Under the pieces are notes generated by a model. That model had not been told where the DNA came from. It saw only the letters and a list, made by a program, of their open reading frames with translations, and searched no databases. Below, piece after piece: positions 8,990-57,542 of a stretch of 64,000 nt of DNA. Source of the DNA: Atractiella rhizophila. Lineage: Eukaryota. Position numbers and translations under genes: made by a program. Location: assembly GCA_021432655.1 (NCBI GenBank), contig MU271268.1:1-64000 (forward strand), given 5' to 3'. Position 1 is the stretch's first letter, and every line of letters starts with the position of its first letter.

Positions 8990-9595
8990 GCCGTACTCTA
9001 CTATAAATAGAGGCAAGACCAGGGACGGGAATGTCGTCCAAAAAACCATTGAATTGTTGGTCACAGCCCTTTGATAACTCTCGAGCGTCTCTCGAGAAGT
9101 CGGGCACTACAAGGGAGAAGACGATGAGAATCGCTCACCACATACAAGGTAACACCTGTCCTCAGCATATGTCATGGTCTTACATATACATGAGAGAAAG
9201 AGAAACATGCCTGGTAAAGTTATCGAGGGACAGAATAGTCATTGGGGAGAGAAGAGGCGTGCGCACAAGCGATCCAAGGCGAGAAGACATCCTTTGCCAC
9301 GGCGCGTGGTCGACCAGTTTCTCACTTTTCTCCTTCGTGCCAGTAGGAGAGCATCGCCACAACCAAGCTCCTCGCCATGCAGCTCGTCACAACTCGCGGC
9401 TTCGATCGCAGCCCATCTGCCTGCTTTATCCTGCCCTTCACTGCCGCTCTCTCTAGCATCATCGTCCAGTTGTAAGAACGAAAGCGGAACCGACAGTGAA
9501 GGGAACCAGTTTCGGAGAAAAGTGTAGTTGTCAACATTCTGAGTTGGGACTCTGCTAGGATGATGTAGGTGAGATGGAGAGCGAGGAAAGTGCAA
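8990..9595 (-). pseudogene. Degenerate nucleotide-sugar (UDP-galactose-type) transporter fragment
   Basis: LQLDDDARESGSEGQDKAGRWAAIEAAS aligns with VQLDDGAGGKSGLGNEGEDKVRGLLAIGAAS of 16597-17806. The DNA also matches 16730-16860. Multiple frameshifts. Confidence 0.75.
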
Positions 9596-11193
9596 TCATT
9601 ACCATGCCGCTTGGAGATAACAGCGGAGCAGCGCACGGATATGTTTGCAATTAGGGCCAGAAATCGCATAGCACACGAAACGAGAGAAAGGTAAAATATA
9701 CGGCTTATATCCAACCGCGCGCACCATACGTGTCAAATTCGACCCGAAGCAGAACCAATATGTCGGTACAGGTCCAATGGCAAATGTCATATCTTATTTA
9801 CAACCATGTCCGCAGACACAAGGGAATGATGTACACCACAGGGATAGCACTTGAAAACTTATGCAGCGTATGGAGAGTGCGCGAGCCGTTCCGGTCACGC
9901 CAACCGCGTTTTGCAACGAATGAGCAACAGATGATGGTATTGGGCAATACCAAGATCGATCAGATTTGAGTGAAAACTGCCTCATTATTTCTTCTTTCCA
10001 CCAGCACCCTCATCAGACGCACGATAATCTCTCTCTAGACCTTCGGCATCCTCCGCAGCCTCGAGTCTATCTTTCCCTGTTAGGAATAGAGGCAAGACCA
10101 GGGACGGGAATGTCGTCCAAAAAACCATTGAATTGTTGGTCACAGCCCTTTGATAACTCTCGAGCGTCTCTCGAGAAGTCAGGCACTACAAGGGAGAAGA
10201 CGATGAGAATCGCTCACCACATACAAGGTAACACCTGTCCTCAGCATACAGCAATGGTCTTACATATACATGAGAGAAAGAGAAGCATGCCTGGTAAAAG
10301 TTATCTAGGACAGAATAGTCATTGGGGGGAGAAGAGGCGTGCGCACAGGCGATGCAAGGCGAGAAGACATCCTTTGCCACATCGCATAGTCGATTTTCCT
10401 CTTCCGTACACCATCTAGTTTCTCACTTTTCTCCTTCGTGCCAGTAGGAGAGCATCGCAACAACCAAGCTCCTCGCCATGCAGCTCGTCACAACTCGCGG
10501 CTTCGATCGCAGCCCATCTGCCTACTTCATCCTCCCCTTCACTGCCCTTCTCTCTAGCATCATCGTCTAGTTGTAGGAACGAAAGCGGAACCGACAGTGA
10601 GGGACCAGTTTCGGAGAAGAGTGTAGTTTTAACAGTCAGAGTTGGGATGCTAGGATGATGTAGGTGAGATAGAGAGCGAGGAAAGTGCAATCATTACCAT
10701 GCCGCTATTATTCAATTTCTAGCCTTGTAGATAGAGGAGCGGCGCACGGATATGTTTGCAACTACGGCCAGAAATCGCATCGCACACGAAACGAGAGAAA
10801 GGAAAGAACACAGCTTATATCCAACAGCGCACACCGCACGTGTCAAATTCGACCCGAAACGGATCGAATATGTCGGTTCCAATGGGAAATGACATATCTA
10901 TTTACAACCATGTCCGCAGACATTAGGGAAAGATGTACACAGCAGGGATAGCACTTGAAAACTTATGCAGCGTATGGACAGTGTGCGAGCCGTTCCCGTC
11001 ACGCCAACCGCGTGTTGCAATGAATGAGCAGCAGATGATGGTATTGGGCAATACCTTGGTAAGATCGATCCGATTTGAGTGAAAACTGCATCATTATTTC
11101 TTCTTTCCACCAGCACCCTCATCAGACGCACGATAATCTCTCTCTAGACCTTCGGCATCCTCCGCAGCCTCGAGTCTATCTTTCCCTGTTAGG
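9006..11193. repeat. ~1.1-kb tandem duplication (9006-10085 / 10086-11193)
   Basis: Both units start AATAGAGGCAAGACCAGGGACGGGAATG and end CCTCGAGTCTATCTTTCCCTGTTAGGA. Highly similar, with indels. Confidence 0.95.
10086..10690 (-). pseudogene. Second degenerate nucleotide-sugar transporter fragment
   Basis: Duplicate of 9006-9595: LQLDDDAREKGSEGEDEVGRWAAIEAAS. Confidence 0.75.
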
Positions 11194-12648
11194 AGGACCT
11201 TTCTCACAAGGTGGTAGACAGACCTCTTTTCCACGTTTGTCTCCACTTCAACATTAACCATCACAACTGCATTACTAACCTGCAGCCCCCCCTCTATTCG
11301 CCTTCCGACACTGTGAATGTGTGCATCTGGTGGTTCACGAAAATCAGGCCTGTTAAAGCTCCTAAACTTTGGAACTGTGTTAATTCGTCCAGAGGAGCCA
11401 CTGCGGCTGCTGCCTCCCTCTCGTGAGTTTGAACCAGGGGCGACAGACCGAAGATGGAGCACGATTCGAGAAGCCATGATCGTCGTGAATGTCAGAGTAA
11501 GCGGACAGTTCAGAGTTGGGTTGATTTCTGTTGGGATGCTGTAGTATCACGTTGGTTTAGGAGAATCTTTGGCTGAAGGTGGTTACGAACGAGAAGTAAA
11601 CCACGTTAACCAGATTGCAAATTGATACGATAATGAAGTAGGCGATGCCATCGCGCAAGAAGATTGAGATGAGGCGGGTAGGAGGGGCTTCGCGCCAGTG
11701 AGAGATGAGTGGACTGTTGAAAGGTTAGGAACAAGTCCGGAGGAGATTATCTAGCTCACACGAGCATGAAAATCGTCGCCGTTGTATCGTAAAGCAGAAG
11801 TGGGACCCTGTCGTTATGATCAGCGGTTTGATCATGGAAACGTGCGACGAACCAATAAATCCAGATGTAGCTTTTACGCGAAACATTGCGTCAGTTTTTA
11901 AACCACATAGACGTGAAGACGAATTACTGGTCACGTCCTCGGATCGAGATGCAACCCCTCAGGCCAGGTAGTCTATAGACAGGTCAACAAATGTCTCCTT
12001 TTCCTCGCAGACGTACAAACGCAGGGCATCGTCCTCAGCAAATGACAGCACCTGGACAGCCGTGCCAGCTATGGCAAAAATCCCAAAGAAGTATGCGATC
12101 CATTTGCGACGGTTCCACATTACCCATACTCTTGTGCCGAGGAGGAACTCGCAGTTCACTGCACCCATGATTGTCAATACTTATTTAACTACATGGTTTG
12201 AGGTGAGCGGACGCACAGAAGAGAATGGTGGTGGCAGCAGGCTCGAGAATATGGAACTTGTTGCAGGTTTTCGGGGTAAATTCAAGCCAGAGAAGACACA
12301 TCGCCAGGACGAAGGTCAAGAGACCCCAGTAGCTGCAGAATTCTGAGGTGAGTCTTCTACTTGTTGAACAAACTTGCGGAGCTGTAAACACACCGATTGA
12401 AGAAGAACGAGACACGGACTAGCGTCCAACGTTCAGCCTTCCACATCGCCTTGTATTCTCCTGGAAAAGTGAGGATGAAATCCCAGCCATAGATCGCAAA
12501 GCAAGCTGTTAGCTCATTTGGTTAAGCTCACATGAGGTGGAGGAAAACACAAACCAGTGAGATAGACGCGACTAGCTGAAAGGACTTCTTCCAAAGATGC
12601 TCGTTGGTTAACGAGATCGAGCTGTTCTTCTAGCGGGGGGACGGACAT
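11094..12648 (-). CDS. 7-TM GPCR-like DUF6533-type protein (copy C)
   Basis: ATG at 12648 (MSVPPLEEQLDL). Same exon layout as copy B, frame kept. Ends DEGAGGKKK* at 11094. Confidence 0.88.
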
Positions 12649-41600: not shown

Positions 41601-41968
41601 AGAAAACAAGACGCGTTTTGGTCGCGCCGAAAACTCCACAAAAAGCACTGTCCCTTCCCAACAATATAAACAGGACTGCCTCACCTCAATTGGTTCAACG
41701 TGATTAAGGTCCAATCCATAAGATAACTTGTTTATCCTCGCCGTGATTTTGTCGAAAGCAACGCGTTCCTGACGTCCATCTACACGATTCCAAAACAAGC
41801 AAAAAGGCGCGAAAGAGCACGGTTAGTGATTCACAAACAACTTTCGCGCGAAGACACAGCTCACCTCTCTGTTGACCGTGACGCGAACAAGGTGCGAAAA
41901 AGATGAAAGTTAGTGACATGAGACGCGTCAGAAAGTAAACGCACCTTGTAGACGAACATCTGAGACAT
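38653..41968 (-). CDS. RNR1: Ribonucleoside-diphosphate reductase large subunit
   Basis: [24 protein letters not shown] (ATP cone), [40 protein letters not shown] and C-terminal CMMCSG*. Confidence 0.98.
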
Positions 41969-43830
41969 CTTGAGGAGTTACCGTGAGATATTGCACAAAC
42001 TGATGAGTAGCTAGCGTGTTTGGAAGTGGTGGGAGTTGGGAGAAAACAGGACGTGTTTTTGAGTTTTAAGGCAGCGTACATAGGGTTAGGGCTCAGAAAA
42101 CAGAATCGGATTTGACTCCACTAACGCCGAAGACACTGGAACGACGCGCTTTCAAAGTATAAACTTTCGCGGTGCGCGTCACAACAAAATTTTATAGTTT
42201 TCCCAAGGTTTTCCATAAAGTTTTCCTGTACAGGATTGAGCTTGCACAGGATCAAATGCAGGAGATGCCCATGACTCAGGTCGAATCATGCTCCAGCCCG
42301 GCCACCGGGCCGAGGTCTTCACGTTCGATCACATTTCTTCGACCAAGACCCTCATACACTCCACTCAGGCTGAAGCAACCTGCTTTGAGGGGCATTTTCG
42401 AATCGTCTTTCCTGCGAAATAGTTGGTCTGTATCAATATTCAGACAGGGTAGAAGCTTTTTGGTGAAAAATTCAACAAGATTCCGGTTTAGTCGGGGTGA
42501 GCATCTTTTCAGCTACTTGGCAGTGGTCAAAGGGTTTGGTAACAATGAAATCTCCTCTTGGTCAGACATTCTTACTTCGGAATGCCTCTTCCTCGACGCA
42601 TATTTCCGTTGCGGAGGACATTTCGCACCGCAGCGTTCACTGTAGCTGCCGCTTCAACGTCATACGCTGCCTATTCCTTCTTCTCTCCGCATATCCCTCA
42701 GGATGAGGACACGATTTCCGAGGAGCAGGCGCGTAGCCTCTACTACTCCCCTCCTCCCAACGGCATTGCTCTAGACACTCCCCATCCGAGCAATACCCGA
42801 CCATCACTTTTCTGGACGCCGCCAACGAAAGAGCACGGTTAGTGATTCACAAACAACTTTCGCGCGAAGACACAGCTCACCTCTCTGTTGACCGTGACGC
42901 GAACAAGGTGCGAAAAAGATGAAAGTTAGTGACATGAGACGCGTCAGAAAGTAAACGCACCTTGTAGACGAACATCTGAGACATCTTGAGGAGTTACCGT
43001 GAGATATTGCACAAACTGATGAGTAGCTAGCGTGTTTGGAAGTGGTGGGAGTTTGGAGAAAACAGGACGTGTTTTTGAGTTTTAAGGCAGCTAACATAGG
43101 GTTAGGGCTCAGGAAACAGAATCGGATTTGACTCCTCTAACGCCGAAGACGCCTGGAACGACGCGCTTTCAAAGTATAAACTTTCACGGTGCGCGTCACA
43201 ACAATCTTTTATAGTTTTCCATAAGTTTTCCTGTACAGAATTGAGCCTGCACGGGATCAAATGTAGAAGATGCCCATGACTCAGGTCGAATCATGCTCCA
43301 GCCCGGCCCACGGGCCGAGGTCTTCACGTTCGATCGCATTTCTTCGACCAAGACCCTCATACACTCCACTCAGGCTGAAGCAACCTGCTTTGAGGGGCAT
43401 TTTCGAATCGTCTTTCCTGCGAAATAGTTGGTCTGTATCAATATTCAGACAGGGTAGAAGCTTTTTGGTGAAAAATTCAACAAGATTCCGGTTTAGTCGA
43501 GGTGAGCATCTTTTCAGCTACTTGGCAGTGGTCAAAGGGTTTGGTAACAATGAATCTCCTCTTGGTCAGACGTCCTCACTTCAGAATGCCTCTTCCTCGA
43601 CGCATATTTCCTTTGCGGAGGACATTTCGCACCGCAGCGTTCACTGTAGCTGCCGCTTCAACGTCATACGCTGCCTATTCCTTCTTCTCTCCGCATATCC
43701 CTCAGGATGAGGACACGATTTCTGAGGAGCAGGCGCGTAGCCTCTACTACTCCCCTCCTCCCAACGGCATTGCTCTAGACACTCCCCATCCGAGCAATAC
43801 CCGACCATCACTTTTCTGGACGCCGCCAAC
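41811..43830. repeat. ~1-kb tandem duplication of the RNR1/GUT2 head-to-head region (41811-42826 / 42827-43830)
   Basis: Both units start GAAAGAGCACGGTTAGTG and end TTCTGGACGCCGCCAAC. Few SNPs and indels. Confidence 0.97.
42582..42842 (+). pseudogene. Truncated 5' duplicate of GUT2 (targeting-peptide region only)
   Basis: MPLPRRIFPLRRTFRTAAF...LFWTPPT is identical to the GUT2 N-terminus, followed by KEHG* across the junction. Confidence 0.85.
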
Positions 43831-46290
43831 AAGACAGCAGATGATTCGCGCGCTCAAAGCTTCCTCAGTCGTCAGCCCTTCAGAAGAGTATGGTGATCCT
43901 TCTTCTTGGTTCAACTTCAGCAGTACATCCCGAGAGGAATCGACCAAGAAGCTGGCGGAACAAGAGAACGAGTATGATCTTCTGATCATCGGAGGAGGGG
44001 CCACCGGGGCAGGAACAGCTTTGGACGCTGCGAGCCGGGGACTGAAGGTCGCAATGGTGGAGAGGGACGATTTCAGCAGTGGGACGAGCTCAAAGAGCAC
44101 AAAACTAGTGCACGGAGGAGTGCGATATCTTCAGAAAGCCGTTTTTGAACTCGATTACGAGCAGTACAAGCTTGTCCGAGAGGCTTTGCATGAGCGCAAA
44201 ACGTTCCTCCACATCGCACCTTATCTCAGTCACCAGCTGCCAATCATGCTCCCCATCTACAAGTACGTCTATTGATTGACAATGTGCACGCCAGCTCAGC
44301 TGATGCCGCTGAAGATGGTGGGGCGTGCCGTACTACTGGTCTGGTTGCAAGATGTACGACATACTCGCTGGGAAGGAGAACATGCAGTCATCCTATTTTC
44401 TTTCAAAATCACGAGCTTTGGAGCAGTTTCCTATGTTAAAGAAGGATAGCTTGGTGGGAGCTTTGGTTTATTATGATGGTACGGCTGTCCTCTAACTTGA
44501 GTTATTCAACTAATCCAACTTCATCTAGGTCAACATAACGACTCTCGCATGAATATGGCTCTCGTTTCGACTGCTATCCACCATGGCGCCGTAGCCGTCA
44601 ATCACTGCGAAGTCGTCCAGCTGCACAAGAAACCCAATGAAGTGGGCGAGCTTAAATTATGTGGCGCTCGAGTGAGGGATGTGTTTACAGGCGAAGAATG
44701 GGATGTCAAAGCAAAAGTGAGTACGAATCCGCATCACATCGCCCACTCATGAGTTGATAGGGTATCATCAATGCGACTGGACCGTTTTCAGACGGCGTCC
44801 GAAAGATGGATGACCCGTCCTGCATGGAGATTGTTGCTCCCTCGAGCGGTGTTCACATCACTCTACCCAACTACTATTCCCCTGGGAAAATGGGTCTCTT
44901 GGATCCTTCGACCTCCGACGGACGCGTTATCTTCTTTCTGCCTTGGCTGGGGAACACAATCGCAGGCACGACGGATGCTCTGACGACTGTGGAACAACAT
45001 CCTATACCTCAAGAGAAAGAGGTCGACTGGATCCTTGACGAGGTCAAACATTACCTCAGTCCCGATATCAAGGTCAGGAAAGGCGATATCCTCAGTGCTT
45101 GGAGCGGTATTCGACCTTTAGTTCGTGACCCAGACGCGAAAAATACAGAATCCTTGGTCAGAAACCATATGATCAACCTCTCACCATCAGGACTGCTCAC
45201 AATCGCAGGAGGGAAGTGGACGACATACCGAGAGATGTCGGAGGAGACGGTGGATGCAGCACTCAAAGCCTTCAAGCTCGAGGCTCAGCGTTCCTGTCAG
45301 ACGAAGGAGATCCAACTGCTAGGATCACATGGATGGTCGAAGCTGATGTATATCAAGCTTATTCAACAGTTCGGTCTCGAAACAGAAGTAGCCAAACATC
45401 TAGCTGACACCTATGGCGATCGAGCCTGGACGGTTTGCTCCATGGCCAATCCAACTGGAAAGCGATGGCCCGTCCATGGGACGAGGATAGATCCCAATTA
45501 TCCCTTCCTTATCGAAGAAATCATCTACGCCGTTCGCAGGGAATTTGCCGCTACTGCCACTGACATCATTGCGCGTCGTACTCGCCTCTCCTTCCTGAAC
45601 GTTCAAGCCGCGCTTGAAGCTCTGCCAACTGTGATCGAAGTCATGGCAGGCGAGCTTGGATGGGACAAGAAGCGCCAACGTAAGGAATTCGAAGATTCTC
45701 GCGATTTCTTACAATCCATGGGATTGCCGACCTCTCTCCAGAATGTAACTTACGATCAAGTCAAGTCGGGAAGCTGGAAGAAGACGGTCACTGAGCAGAA
45801 CTTGAGCATCAGCAGAGCATTGTTCAGTCATGACGAGATGGAATATCTCGTCCGAAAGTTCAAGGACTTCGATGTGGATAACGATGGCCGAATTAGCACA
45901 AAGGATCTTGAAAAGGTGATGAGCCGCATGGGATTCACGGACTTGACGAAAGTAAGCGGTTATTACCCTTTCCACAATAGGTACTAATGGGCGGCATTAG
46001 GAAAAGCTGGAGAATATCATCAAGGAGGTTGCTGGTCGAAGTGAAGGCACTCTTCAGTTCAAAGAGTAAGCCGTATCTCGTTGGAGAGTATGCTTCTAAC
46101 GAAATCGCTTAGCTTCTTGGATATTGCTGCTGGAGTGAAGGAAGTGCATCTTCACAGCGCGTTCTCACGCCTTATGAAGGACTACAAAACAGATGATTCG
46201 ACACCGGACCCAAGCTCGGATGAGAAGGACAAGAAGCAGCAGTGGTTTGGAAAGCGGATTCCTGTCGAGCGAAGCGGTGGAGGAACTTAA
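43586..46290 (+). CDS. GUT2: Mitochondrial FAD-dependent glycerol-3-phosphate dehydrogenase with C-terminal EF-hand
   Basis: DLLIIGGGATG, GTSSKSTKLVHGGVRYL, TSDGRVIF, WSGIRPL, AGGKWTTYR and DVDNDGRISTKD. An alternative in-frame ATG lies at 43550. Confidence 0.97.
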
Positions 46291-52062: not shown

Positions 52063-52850
52063 ATGTTTGGAAACTATGTTCCCAAAGGAAAGAACTACTT
52101 CGGTGGCGTACGGCCTGTTTCCCTCCACCTGAGATACACTCACCATCCTGACTTTGTAGAAACGAGGTGACACAGGGAGCGTGTTCTCCAAACACAATCT
52201 CAAAGGCGTGCCGGCCAGCAAGAATACACAATGCCAGAAATGCGAGCAGTATGGGCATTTCACTTATCAATGCAACAGTACTGCGTGAGTTCTCCTCTCC
52301 GCTCACATTCCATTGTGGACAGTGGTTGATGATCTTGCCAGGCAATACAAACCACGTCCTAGTCGAACCCAACAACTTTTGAACCCAAAGGTCGCAAAGA
52401 CTACTCCGAGTGTCGAGCTTCCGGACGAGTTCAGAAACAAGTAAGTGTTTCTCAATGCAAAGGGTACGTTGGGTTGAAAGTACACTTTGTGTAGGACGGG
52501 AGTGGCGGACGAGATCCTGAAGGGGAAAGAAAAGGAACGGGAGGCACAGGAAAGTAAGAAACGAAAGAGGTGCGTCCTTGATTTGCAACTGCGTTCTTCG
52601 TCACTAATAACTAGTTTCTCACAGAGCTGATTTGTCCTCCTCCTCGTCCGACTCAGATTCCTCCGATTCCGATTCCGATTCCGATTCTGATGATTCTAGT
52701 GGATCCTCGAGCGATAGTGACAGTGACAGTGATTCCTCGGGCTCTCACTCTTCTTCCTCCGCCTCTCGTTCTAGAAGGGCAACTCGAAATCCTAGAAAGA
52801 GGCGTCGCAGTTCATCCTCTGCCAGTAGGCGGTCAAGATCGCCTTCTTAG
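52063..52850 (+). CDS. CCHC zinc-knuckle protein (ZCCHC10-like) with Ser/Asp- and Arg/Ser-rich tail
   Basis: TQCQKCEQYGHFTYQC, YKPRPSRTQQLLNP and SDSDSD repeats. Confidence 0.85.
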
Positions 52851-53277: not shown

Positions 53278-53838
53278 ATGGGCCGCCTGAATTTATCGGA
53301 TTTGGAAGATGGAGATATTGAGCGAGACGACCTTCGGCGACAAGCAGCTGAAGCGGAGCGTCCCGACTCCTCAGATTCAGACCTTGACCTTGACGCACAG
53401 CTGCACAAGATCCGGTTTGGAGGAAATGCATCTTCCAATCCCACTCCCACTCCCACTGCGTCCACTTCCGATTCCGCTGGTGCTTCAGCAGCTTCAGCCT
53501 CGGCGTCACAAGTGGATGCCCCGACAGATATGCAGAAACGTCCTGGCCCAGGAAAGTGGTTGGAGGGAAACAAGATGCGTCCTTCCCGCCCTTTGAAGCG
53601 GCCGAAAGGAGTCATTCCTCCGCGGATGGAGACGGAGGAGGAGAGGAGGGAGGGAGAGGAGGGAGAGGTCGAAAAGTTTAGGAGCGATATGAAGGCCGCT
53701 GCGGAGGCTGGCAGATTGAAGAGCTCAAACATGGCGATGGATGTTGTGAGCGAGGGAGTGGGCAGGAGCGTGAATGCGGGGATTGATGATTTTGTGCCGG
53801 AAGAAGAGAGCGACGATGATGCGACGAAGGAAGGTTAA
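53278..53838 (+). CDS. Low-complexity hypothetical protein (~186 aa); probable snoRNA host gene
   Basis: Open frame from ATG 53278 with charged composition. A 3'-UTR intron (53864-54066) contains a snoRNA. Confidence 0.7.
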   Translation: MGRLNLSDLEDGDIERDDLRRQAAEAERPDSSDSDLDLDAQLHKIRFGGNASSNPTPTPTASTSDSAGASAASASASQVDAPTDMQKRPGPGKWLEGNKMRPSRPLKRPKGVIPPRMETEEERREGEEGEVEKFRSDMKAAAEAGRLKSSNMAMDVVSEGVGRSVNAGIDDFVPEEESDDDATKEG

Positions 53839-53899
53839 TGTGTCTTTGTACCGTTTGGTAACGGTGAGCATTCTCTTCTATTTCTTCCATACAAATGGT

Positions 53900-54014
53900 G
53901 TGGTGGTGGGTCGCGAATGATGAACTTGGATATCAAAGTGGAATCTCGTTTGTCTGATTGATATTTGACGATAATGTATCCATAAAAATTCTTCTGATGC
54001 GCACCTACCACCAC
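53900..54014 (+). ncRNA. Box C/D snoRNA, U30/SNORD30-like (copy 1)
   Basis: C box ATGATGA 53917, D' CTGA 53954, C' TTGACGA 53965, D CTGA 53994. Terminal stem GTGGTGGTGGGT/ACCTACCACCAC. Guide GGAATCTCGTT is complementary to LSU rRNA AACGAGAUUCC. Confidence 0.88.
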
Positions 54015-54612
54015 GACCAGAGGGAAAAAGGAATGGTGCTGATGCTGACGGTTTTTTTTTACACAGTGTTCCCATACCACTTCAGCAACAAAGGATGTAC
54101 TAGTAGTTGCCTGTCATTAACTCACTTGTGATTTCTGTACCACCGAAAATGTATTTCTAGGGAAACACAATTAATTCAAATACCTTGCCTACACAGTGAT
54201 CCGTGAACATTCCATCGCCTGTCGCTCTGAAACCTCAAGCCTTCTTTATGCCTCTACTTCTACTACGCTTCAACTCCAACTATTTAAATCCCGCTCTATG
54301 TCCGCTTCCGCTTTGATTTTCCAAATGCGGACTACTCACCCGCCTCCGACTACATTTTCGGCCCGTCCCGACAGAACCGAAAGAACACCGACAACAACTT
54401 TTGTATAGCTGAGCGGGGGTTTAAGACTGATTAGAAAGGCATACGCATTGTACGGTGAAATTAAGTGGGTGTACGTTGTATCAGCGTTATATTATTAGCG
54501 AGACGTCTTTAAAGTCTTTACGCGGTGCGTTTTCTTCATCACTGGTGCAAGGGTCGAGCGGTTGAGGCATAAGTGAGCGTAGAATCTTTATTGCGAAAAA
54601 AAAAAAAAAAAA

Positions 54613-54727
54613 GTGGTGGTGGGTCGCGAATGATGAACTTGGATATCAAAGTGGAATCTCGTTTGTCTGATTGATATTTGACGATAATGTATCCATCAAA
54701 AATTCTTCTGATGTTACCCACTACCAC
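54613..54727 (+). ncRNA. Box C/D snoRNA, U30/SNORD30-like (copy 2)
   Basis: Same boxes (C 54630, D' 54667, D 54708) and guide as copy 1. The stem is kept with a different 3' arm, ACCCACTACCAC. Confidence 0.85.
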
Positions 54728-55303
54728 GACAAAAACGAATGGTGCTGATGCTGACGGTTTTTTTACACAGTGTTCCCATACCAGTTCAGCAACAAAGGAT
54801 GTACTCGTAGTTCTATCATTAACTCACTTGTGATTTCTGTACCACCGAAAATGTATTTCTAGGGAAACACAATTAATTCAAAGACCTTGCCTACACAGTG
54901 ATCCGTGAACATTCCATCGCCCGTCGCTTTGAAAGCTCAAGCCTTCTTTATGCCCATACTTCTACGCTTCAATCAGGGCCGACTATTTAAATCCCGCTCT
55001 ATGTCCGTTTCCGCTTTGGTTTTCCAAATGCGGACTACTTACCCGCCTCCGACTACATTTATCGGCCCGCCCCGACAGAACCGACAGAACACCAACTTTT
55101 TGTTTCGCTTTGCAGGGGTTTAAGACTGATTAGAAAGGCATACGCATTGTACGGTGGGATTAAGTGGGTGTATTTTATATCAGCGTTATATTATTAGCGA
55201 GACGTCTTTAAGGTCTTTAAACCGTGCGTTTTCTTCATCACGAATGCGAGGGTCGAGCGGTTGAGGCATAAGTGAGCGTAGAATCTTCATTGCGATTGCA
55301 GAC

Positions 55304-57542
55304 ATGCTTCAATCTTCCCGCACTGGGTTGCGCTCTGCCACGTGCACTGCCAACCCGCCCATCCCAGTCGTCCTCCGTCCCAAACGGCGCAACATCTCAC
55401 GCTCCTCCACACTGCTCACTCCTGACCTTCTCCCTTCTGCGCCTCTCTCCGACGTATCCCACGCGCCGCCTCCAATCATAATGTCTACGCCACAGACGGT
55501 GCGTGTCTTTTGGTTGGAGCCTTGTTCTGTCAAAGTCTAAGGTGGATGTAGAGCCTCCGCCCACATAGAAGGCAAACGAGGGTCCTGCCACCGCTCGCGC
55601 GGAAGAACCTGCTTACCAAGAGCGACTTGAGGGATTTTGCCTTCTCGAAAACACGGCCTCTCGAATCTTTCATCCTTCAGTCGACGACCAGTGTCGGAAG
55701 CACGAGCGCACGCCGTGAGGAAGCTTTTGCTTCTCTTGTACAGTCCTCCTCAGAGCGTAGCTCCCCGTCGCAGAGAACTCCACCCAATCATCTTCGACGC
55801 ACTGGCGACAACACAGGCCTCCGTTCAACTCATGCATCACCGACATCCAACCCGATCGGGACGAGTTCTACATCTTTTCCTCCGCGCGGGGTTTCAACCT
55901 ACGGAGATTCGCATTCCAAGAATTCACTCTCAGGCTTGAATGTTGGCGGATCTTCGAGTTTGTCTCCGTCGGCGGAGCAAGGGCCACGGTCCGATGACGC
56001 ACTTATTTCAAGTAACGATATTCCAACAACAAGATCTTTTAAAGACTACTGGAAGAATCGTCTGCAGGTCAACAGATATGAGGACGCCTTTGCTTCCCTG
56101 TCTCAATCGACGCCCAAACTCTCCAAGCCATCGCAAACTGAGTGCCCACCAATCATCCTAACTTCTGGCCCTGGATCGAGGACATCCTCGCGGCCGCCAC
56201 TGAGGTCCTCTTCGAGTCGCACCGACATTCCACCACGACTCTTGAAAGAGGAGCCGAAAGTTGGTGGCTTCGAGAATCCTGTTCATACCAACGAAGATAG
56301 TCAGCGAGCAGAACGACAGAAAGAGGCCCTTGCTACGATCGTCAAGTCGGCGGTCAAACGACCACGGCCGTCTCCCTTAGTTCCCCCCCCTACTACCTCA
56401 ACGTCGTCCCTCCCATCGAAGTTGCCCATCTCGAATCCCTCAACCAACTCGGACTCTCTCACTCCTCCGTCAATACCGCTCCCTCATTCTGACCCTGAAG
56501 CAGGGGAAGGAGAAGTCGCCTTCGTTTATCGACCTCCATCACGTTCCCAATCTTCACGGTTCGTCGACACTCGTCCGAAAACAACAAAAGAATTTCAGGA
56601 CGCTCTGAAAGCGATAGAATCCAGCTCGCACGCATCGACTTTCGATCCTTCCGACCGACTCTACCGAGACCTTCGCAAATACCTCCAGAACTACGTCACG
56701 CACCTACTCGACGGCGGATACGCTCGAGAAGCCGTCGACATCGACGCCACATTCTTCGGTCCCATCTCCTCTTCCTCGCCCGCCTTCCCCAACATACGGT
56801 TGAAGCGCGACCCCGCGTTTTGGGCGACGGCCTTGAAAGCTTTGTGCGAAGCGAACTCTCCAGAATACAAGAGACGACATTTCCCTTCCGAACTGTCCAA
56901 TAGGGAAATCGCGCTCCCCATATCGTTTCCGGAGTTCGAAATGGCCTTGAGACGTGTGGCGGCGGATGGGGTGATCACGAACGAATGGTTCCTCAAGTTC
57001 TTGATGGCCACCATCAAATCGATCATCTCCGAGATCCAGCGCGTCGTATACTCTCCGGCCCCGAGCGAGGTGAGAGAGCTGGTGAGGGAGGAACAGCTGA
57101 CGCCTTACGAGGAACTTTTGAATAACCTCCAGAACCGTTTTTCGGAGGTCAAGAGGAAGGTTCATGAACATCGACGGGTGAGACAACATAAATCCTGGTT
57201 GCGCTCCTTTTCTAAGGCACAGTTTGAGCGCAAAGCATTGCCTTGGGACAAAACGGTACGCCGAACAACGTCTCGTCCAGAGCGACCTGTGACAACGTAG
57301 ATTCCAATGAAGCGGATGGAACATTGTGCGCTGGTATTGGGGAAGGGAAAGTCACTACTCTCAACCGCATTCTGGATTGCCTTGAGCAAATGGAACAACG
57401 ATCTCGAGACTTACTTCGCAAAGCTGCCGATGTCGATGTCGTGGACAAGGTAATCGCCATCGCCATCAAGGACGATAGGAGTGGGAGGGCAATTATCTTG
57501 AGACTCAGAGGGATTCAATCTCTCTTAAGCTTATCAATGTAG
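55304..57542 (+). CDS. Hypothetical protein (Ser/Pro-rich N-terminus, helical C-terminus)
   Basis: The 557-aa ORF joins in frame to an upstream exon through intron ~55499-55550. The start and 3' exons are uncertain. Confidence 0.65.

Follow-up and report, generated by a model that had tools for sequence, protein, structure and literature searches.

Known snoRNA hosts and the locus described here

In N. crassa, most box C/D snoRNAs are encoded in introns, and their host genes are either coding or non-coding (PMC2780460). snoRNAs are described as moving, duplicating and persisting wherever their expression suffices, a behavior called "constrained drift" (PMC3511168). Fungal snoRNA-associated introns relocate and recombine (PMC3596301), and the SNORD115/116 genes are reported to have multiplied through tandem duplication (PMC11028025). 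That snoRNA-bearing introns duplicate locally and relocate in fungi and animals, and that N. crassa has non-coding hosts, is therefore already known. New snoRNA hosts and the origin of non-coding host genes have mostly been inferred from old, eroded cases.

Here, we analysed a 64,000-nt stretch of DNA from the root-associated basidiomycete Atractiella rhizophila (hereafter, the window), in which a box C/D snoRNA lies within a 0.7-kb tandem duplication between two orphan genes. Because the locus is young enough, both breakpoints, the filler between the copies and the parental copy can still be read. In the known cis duplications and relocations, whole intron-exon units are copied within one host or whole introns are inserted elsewhere, whereas at this locus the break falls within the intron, and foreign leader sequence takes the place of the missing 5' half. 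Like the non-coding hosts of the UHG, GAS5 and SNHG type and those of N. crassa, the candidate host of copy 2 would be a short spliced RNA without a meaningful ORF that carries the snoRNA in its intron. Unlike them, it would be a two-exon chimera, predicted from the sequence, of the neighbour's leader and the parent's last exon, and it would have arisen only a few per cent of divergence ago. The novelty would lie in a host being put together in one step from half an intron and the leader of a neighbour, possibly via reverse transcription; no case of host assembly of this kind was found in a limited, word-based search of the literature. Among papers on A. rhizophila, none concerned its RNAs, as judged by title.

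The single most likely reading, which we put forward tentatively, is that copy 2 is a functional snoRNA carried in a hybrid intron that follows a captured upstream region, that is, that a new autonomous host gene has formed. The features of the locus are listed in Table 1.

Table 1. Features of the duplicated snoRNA locus, in window coordinates.
Feature	Position	Strand	Details
Upstream ORF, 186 aa (P0001)	53278..53838	+	Stop codon TAA 53836-53838; presumed host of snoRNA copy 1
Predicted intron 1, 203 nt	53864..54066	+	Donor GTGAGC; CTGAC at 54045 (branch A 54048); ACAG ends at 54066
Duplication unit, copy 1	53900..54596	+	697 nt; contains the snoRNA, the 3' end of intron 1, the exon or intergenic DNA that follows it, and duplicated upstream and leader DNA of the next gene
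Box C/D snoRNA copy 1 with external stem	53900..54014	+	Box C ATGATGA 53917-53923; guide and D' 53938-53957 (D' CTGA from 53954); C' TGACGA 53966-53971; box D CTGA 53994-53997
Duplicated upstream region and leader of the next gene	54479..54588	+	TTATATTAT block 54479-54512; candidate donors at 54525 and 54573; identical block 54550-54588
Predicted hybrid intron, 198 nt	54573..54770	+	Donor GTGAGC; A17; snoRNA copy 2; CTGAC at 54751 (branch A 54754); ACAG ends at 54770
A17 run at the duplication junction	54596..54612	+	Sole homopolymer of at least 12 in the 64,000 bases
Duplication unit, copy 2	54613..55295	+	683 nt
Box C/D snoRNA copy 2 with external stem	54613..54727	+	Box C ATGATGA 54630-54636; guide and D' 54651-54670 (D' CTGA from 54667); C' TGACGA 54679-54684; box D CTGA 54708-54711
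Next gene, 647 aa (P0002), hypothetical protein	55304..57300	+	ATG at 55304; intron 55499-55551

A tandem duplication carrying a U30-type snoRNA

The two units are arranged head to tail. Their global alignment gave 631 identical columns out of 700, with 49 substitutions (28 of them transitions) and 8 indels, which corresponds to a substitution divergence of ~7%. The unit starts at the first base of the external stem of the snoRNA, inside the snoRNA intron, and ends 8 nt upstream of the ATG of the next gene. Both boundaries are sharp, because the flanks are unrelated to the unit ends: the DNA to the left of 53900 showed no homology to the unit end (1544 and 387 of 2000 shuffles scored as high), and neither did that to the right of 55295 to the unit start (1081 of 2000 shuffles). 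The window contains no N, and since the copies are in addition ~7% diverged, a collapsed-repeat artefact is unlikely. RIP-like mutation was ruled out, as transitions made up just 28 of the 49 substitutions. Judging from the alignment and the boundaries, the duplication is genuine and moderately old.

Both genes flanking the duplication are orphans. The translation of the 186-aa ORF is identical to P0001, a database protein from the same contig; it matched no Pfam family, found only itself among 1.84 billion representative proteins, and its Atlas model was poor (pLDDT 0.51). The 647-aa protein of the next gene also found itself alone in a word-based search among proteins of near lengths, and the Atlas gave no match above chance level for the flanking genes. 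The 53-nt intron of this gene has the form GTGCGT...CTAAG...TAG. Upstream of the orphan ORF, a gene at 52200-52850 encodes a CCHC zinc knuckle (CQKCEQYGHFTYQC), recognised by eye, followed by a Ser/Asp- and Arg/Ser-rich tail that matched no Pfam family when scanned alone. Because the presumed protein-coding host is an orphan 186-aa ORF without relatives, it is unsure whether coding and non-coding hosts can be contrasted at this locus.

Predicted intron 1 begins 25 nt past the stop codon of the 186-aa ORF. Its predicted fold has long-range helices in which the 5' part pairs with the 3' part (z = -4.33; none of 200 shuffles was as stable), and the outer helices, among them 53878-85/54029-36 and 53867-72/54041-46, bring the 5' part to the branch region.

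Both snoRNA copies have the general features of box C/D RNAs, namely terminal boxes with a stem, and internal D' and C' boxes with a guide of at least 10 nt. The guide GUGGAAUCUCGUU is followed by 3 nt and then by the D' box. The 20-nt stretch of guide and D' box, GUGGAAUCUCGUUUGUCUGA, is the same in both copies and absent elsewhere in the window (none of 100 shuffles contained two matches). Over the first 100 nt, the sole difference between the copies is an extra C at 54697 (CATAAAAA vs CATCAAAAA). Five differences follow within 54000-54009 of the 3' arm, right after box D. As judged by eye against the fold, all four substitutions among them are C/T exchanges opposite a G of the unchanged 5' arm, so that pairing of the 3' arm survives; the changes affect one side of the stem only, with G-C pairs becoming G-U plus one deletion, and do not form compensatory pairs. 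The terminal stem comprises 12 + 4 bp with 4 more outside in copy 1, and 12 + 3 bp in copy 2. The stem folds had energies of -41.9 and -37.1 kcal/mol for copies 1 and 2, respectively, and in each case none of 200 shuffles was as stable. The initial annotation had stated that both copies keep all boxes and the guide and that their differing 3' arms both still pair; the motif positions bear out the former, and the folding of both terminal stems the latter.

The family of the snoRNA was examined using Rfam. At gathering thresholds, no match was obtained across the window. snoU30 (RF01283) scored 19.0 bits with copy 1 and 18.2 bits with copy 2, below its gathering threshold of 45. In E-value mode, the other snoRNA-type match on the plus strand was snoR44_J54 (20.5 bits, gathering 48), and the rows for ncr1575, PCA3_2 and sR17 (minus strand) were discarded as chance-level. 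The sR17 (archaeal) matches, which are box C/D-like, lie in the duplicated upstream region at 54493-54543 and 55192-55242 (13.8 and 13.0 bits, gathering 36, E = 3.5 and 5.5). The snoRNA stretch AAUCUCGUU..UCUGA aligned letter for letter with the consensus D' guide of RF01283. SNORD30 is reported to direct methylation of A3804 in 28S rRNA (PMC5389715). The candidate U30/SNORD30-type D' guide implies 2'-O-methylation of a conserved A in the large-subunit rRNA. We take the target to lie in the conserved large-subunit stretch GAACGAGAUUCC.

Metagenome contigs were scanned for the combination of box C, guide core and D' in the same frame; the 35 stretches obtained are distant U30-like RNAs of other eukaryotes, none of them a close relative. 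The guide was extended by GU, as in this fungus, in 25 of the 33 stretches re-found by a regular expression (35 in total). Because the 3' halves of these RNAs differ from that of the fungal snoRNA, they are considered distant counterparts. By its boxes and guide, the snoRNA pair is a U30-type guide, not a proven member of RF01283. It has box C, the D' guide, a C'-like box and box D in common with U30/SNORD30, and differs in its sub-gathering scores and in its host, here a 3'-UTR-like intron in a fungus. The main text of PMC5824354 does not mention U30.

The predicted hybrid intron and the fate of copy 2

Before copy 2 stand, in this order, the upstream region of the next gene, its leader with two candidate donors, and the A17 run; after it come the branch site (A 54754), the acceptor at 54770 and the copy of the downstream exon. 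The initial annotation had proposed this architecture, in which duplicated upstream DNA of the next gene, followed by a GT donor and an A run, precedes an intact snoRNA with a branch site and an acceptor. The architecture and its coordinates agree with the motif positions and the unit alignment, and the intron lengths given there (203 and 198 nt) match those in Table 1. TATA-like motifs occur upstream of copy 2 at 54281-54289 (TATTTAAAT) and 54487-54495 (TTATATTAT). The TATA-like block (34 nt) and the donor-bearing leader (39 nt) are among the longest identical runs between the units. We infer that a promoter or transcription start lies within 54479-54588.

The hexamer GTGAGC occurs near the locus at 53864, 54573 and 55272, and 43 times on both strands of the whole window. 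The donor at 54573 (and 55272) is unrelated to that at 53864, because the left flank has no homology to the unit end; the earlier claim that the new donor did not descend from the original one thus stood up to the flank shuffle test. A second candidate donor, GTGCGT, is present in the same leader at 54525. Donors were left unscored, since the ORF-pair method and hexamer enrichment were too noisy and a stricter screen for ORF-joining introns yielded just 13 candidates. These measured 44-70 nt and had 13 different donor hexamers. Compared with these and with the annotated intron of 53 nt, the two predicted snoRNA introns are 3 to 4 times as long. As donors look degenerate (all 13 hexamers differing), the occurrence of a GT followed by G at +5 within a leader of 100 nt is unsurprising. 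A bacterial promoter and terminator scan was inapplicable to a fungus and was set aside.

The stretch from branch site to acceptor is kept in copy 2, save for a T run that is 2 nt shorter. The distance from box D to the branch A is 51 nt in copy 1 and 43 nt in copy 2. As Hirose and Steitz reportedly found in 2001, ~50 nt is optimal for intronic C/D snoRNAs; the spacing in both copies is near this value. In the predicted fold of the hybrid intron, the outer helices of intron 1 are missing (z = -1.83; 9 of 200 shuffles were as stable), and the 7 nt absent from copy 2 (54018-54024) fall in the 3' strands of those helices. Since the boxes and stem are kept and the outer helices are lost, copy 2 retains what a snoRNP needs but has not kept the wider folding of intron 1. 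The RNA predicted after splicing (54480-54572 joined to 54771-55100) contains one ATG-initiated ORF of 30 aa, the ATG of which is made across the junction, and a 50-aa ORF running off the examined stretch; it holds no long or conserved ORF.

A possible 78-nt leader intron before the ATG of the next gene extends from GTGCGT at 55224 to a TTGCAG ending at 55301, with no clear CTRAY branch site. If this intron were real, both breakpoints of the duplication would be intronic, and a hybrid intron would follow automatically.

In the reading that we prefer, both snoRNA copies would function as guides. Transcription of copy 2 would start in the duplicated upstream region and yield a short RNA that lacks any meaningful ORF; the snoRNA would be freed from the hybrid intron (donor 54573 or 54525, acceptor 54770) by debranching and then trimmed back to the 12-bp stem. 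Among the points in favour of this reading is the hybrid donor GTGAGC, which is the same hexamer as the donor of intron 1. We infer transcription start, splicing, accumulation of copy 2 and selection from the arrangement of these elements.

The divergence between the units was compared inside and outside the snoRNA. In the snoRNA body, a single event was counted over 100 columns, whereas the rate outside it was 9.3 per 100 (Poisson P = 0.0009 for events, or 0.027 for clusters, in which events within 3 nt were merged to give 34 clusters). Among 601 sliding 100-nt windows, nine had at most one event, two of them on the snoRNA and seven on 54114-54219. Between the units, this block of the duplicated "exon 2" (corresponding to 54816-54921) matches the snoRNA in its degree of conservation: identical runs of 67 and 38 nt are separated by one substitution. 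It had no Rfam match, and no stable fold was detected in 54100-54230 or 54400-54530 on either strand (z = -0.12 to +0.84). Both units may use this block as a regulatory or 3'-end element.

These data bear directly on the strongest alternative, a possible but somewhat doubtful one, in which copy 2 is a silent or decaying by-product of local duplication. Its intactness would then reflect limited time, chance or gene conversion, and the intron-like frame would be unused. Tandem duplications of 0.2-1.1 kb are indeed frequent in the window, another 100-nt block is conserved like the snoRNA, and copy 2 has a weaker external stem and has lost the outer intron helices. However, the distribution of changes, with 1 event in the 100-nt body, 5 in the next 10 nt and ~9 per 100 elsewhere, is that expected under RNA constraint. 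The sole change in the body sits before box D, and all 4 of the 4 substitutions in the 3' arm retain pairing with G. We know of no target for the snoRNA region before box D.

The argument for selection is weakened by the equally conserved block at 54114-54219, the one-sided changes in the 3' arm, the second donor and the read-through alternative considered below. Evidence that copy 2 has been kept by selection is hence suggestive only, and local gene conversion or chance may instead account for the low divergence of the snoRNA.

It is unlikely that copy 2 is expressed by read-through instead of from a new gene, with the transcript of the upstream ORF spanning unit 1 and carrying both snoRNAs in one long 3' region. 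Copy 2 would in that case be freed either by way of a second intron in the 3' UTR or, with no splicing involved, by exonucleolytic trimming. Human RNAs with a snoRNA start and a poly(A) end (SPAs) are known (PMC11028025), and the 12-bp external stem could define the RNA ends unaided. If the A17 run was copied from a local poly(A) tail, a plus-strand RNA would once have spanned the region from before 53900 to the unit end. On the other hand, copy 2 lies ~550 nt past the acceptor of intron 1, the conserved block 54114-54219 with its AATTAA could be a normal 3'-end region, and the duplicated TATA-like block and leader would offer a nearer start.

An assembly artefact, in which two diverged haplotypes of one locus were placed side by side, is very improbable: basidiomycete cultures can be dikaryotic, and two DNA-like sequencing runs contained 0.65 and 0.59 of the sampled words, against 0.12 and 0.05 in two further runs, which is no real evidence, but the window lacks N, the junction is clean and unique with an A filler of 16-17 nt, the units have sharp boundaries and unrelated flanks, and at another tandem duplication in the window the copies meet in an ordinary short overlap.

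The A17 junction and the origin of the duplication

The first A of the A17 run also aligns to the last base of the unit, and because it doubles in this way the filler is 16-17 nt long. Three other tandem duplications were found in the window, at 900-1272, 9006-11194 and 41810-43839. With four in all, local tandem duplication seems frequent in this stretch. The first of the three is a 184-nt unit repeated twice with 89% identity, and the second has a unit of ~1.1 kb with 93-99% identity. The third has a unit of ~1,010 bp with 97-99% identity, in which an upstream region and the first ~280 nt of an ORF are duplicated (ATG near 42546 and 43551). The junction of this last duplication is an ordinary short overlap, without filler or A run.

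Because the A run is unique in the window and is found at the junction of the snoRNA duplication alone, a copied poly(A) tail is indicated. The odds for and against an RNA-linked origin of the duplication are roughly even. The A17 run suggests a reverse-transcriptase-primed break as its candidate source, for which two routes can be drawn. In the first, target-primed reverse transcription would have halted within the tail, and its resolution would have left a target duplication of 697 bp; this route is disfavoured by the break site, TGGT|GTGG, which is unlike an L1-type site. In the second, a break at 53899|53900 would have been repaired from the locus's own polyadenylated read-through RNA or its cDNA, joined by homology at one end and by end joining at the other. 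It is also possible that a non-templated filler later expanded into A17.

Two observations from human systems are relevant to these routes. In an experimental human system, L1 insertion sites are reported to carry small tandem duplications (PMC11702581), and snoRNA-started, poly(A)-ended read-through RNAs (SPAs) are reported in human cells (PMC11028025). The locus resembles the outcome of human L1 target-primed reverse transcription in having poly(A) at the rearrangement junction and a flanking direct target duplication. It differs in that no element sequence is present other than the A17 itself, that the "target-site duplication" would be 697 bp, and that the break is at TGGT|GTGG rather than a site of the TT/AAAA type. 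A retroposed snoRNA copy (snoRT) or processed retrocopy was rejected: the A run trails a 697-nt genomic unit, not the snoRNA, the copy adjoins its parent, and the flanks have no shared short repeat or homology.

A reverse-transcriptase-primed break within the snoRNA intron would join the promoter and leader of the neighbour to the snoRNA-bearing 3' half of the intron. We consider improbable, though worth stating, the full scenario in which such a break, either through insertion of poly(A) alone and duplication of a 697-bp target site or through repair from local RNA, created an autonomous non-coding snoRNA host in one step that has since been kept by selection.

If copy 2 is silent, the locus is one among several ordinary tandem duplications in the region. 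If copy 2 is transcribed and spliced as drawn here, the locus would be a clean case of one-step promoter capture and hybrid-intron formation giving rise to a new snoRNA host. Such an outcome would agree with "constrained drift", under which snoRNAs are retained at any site where they are expressed, and the A17 junction would add a possible role of reverse transcription in local fungal duplications.
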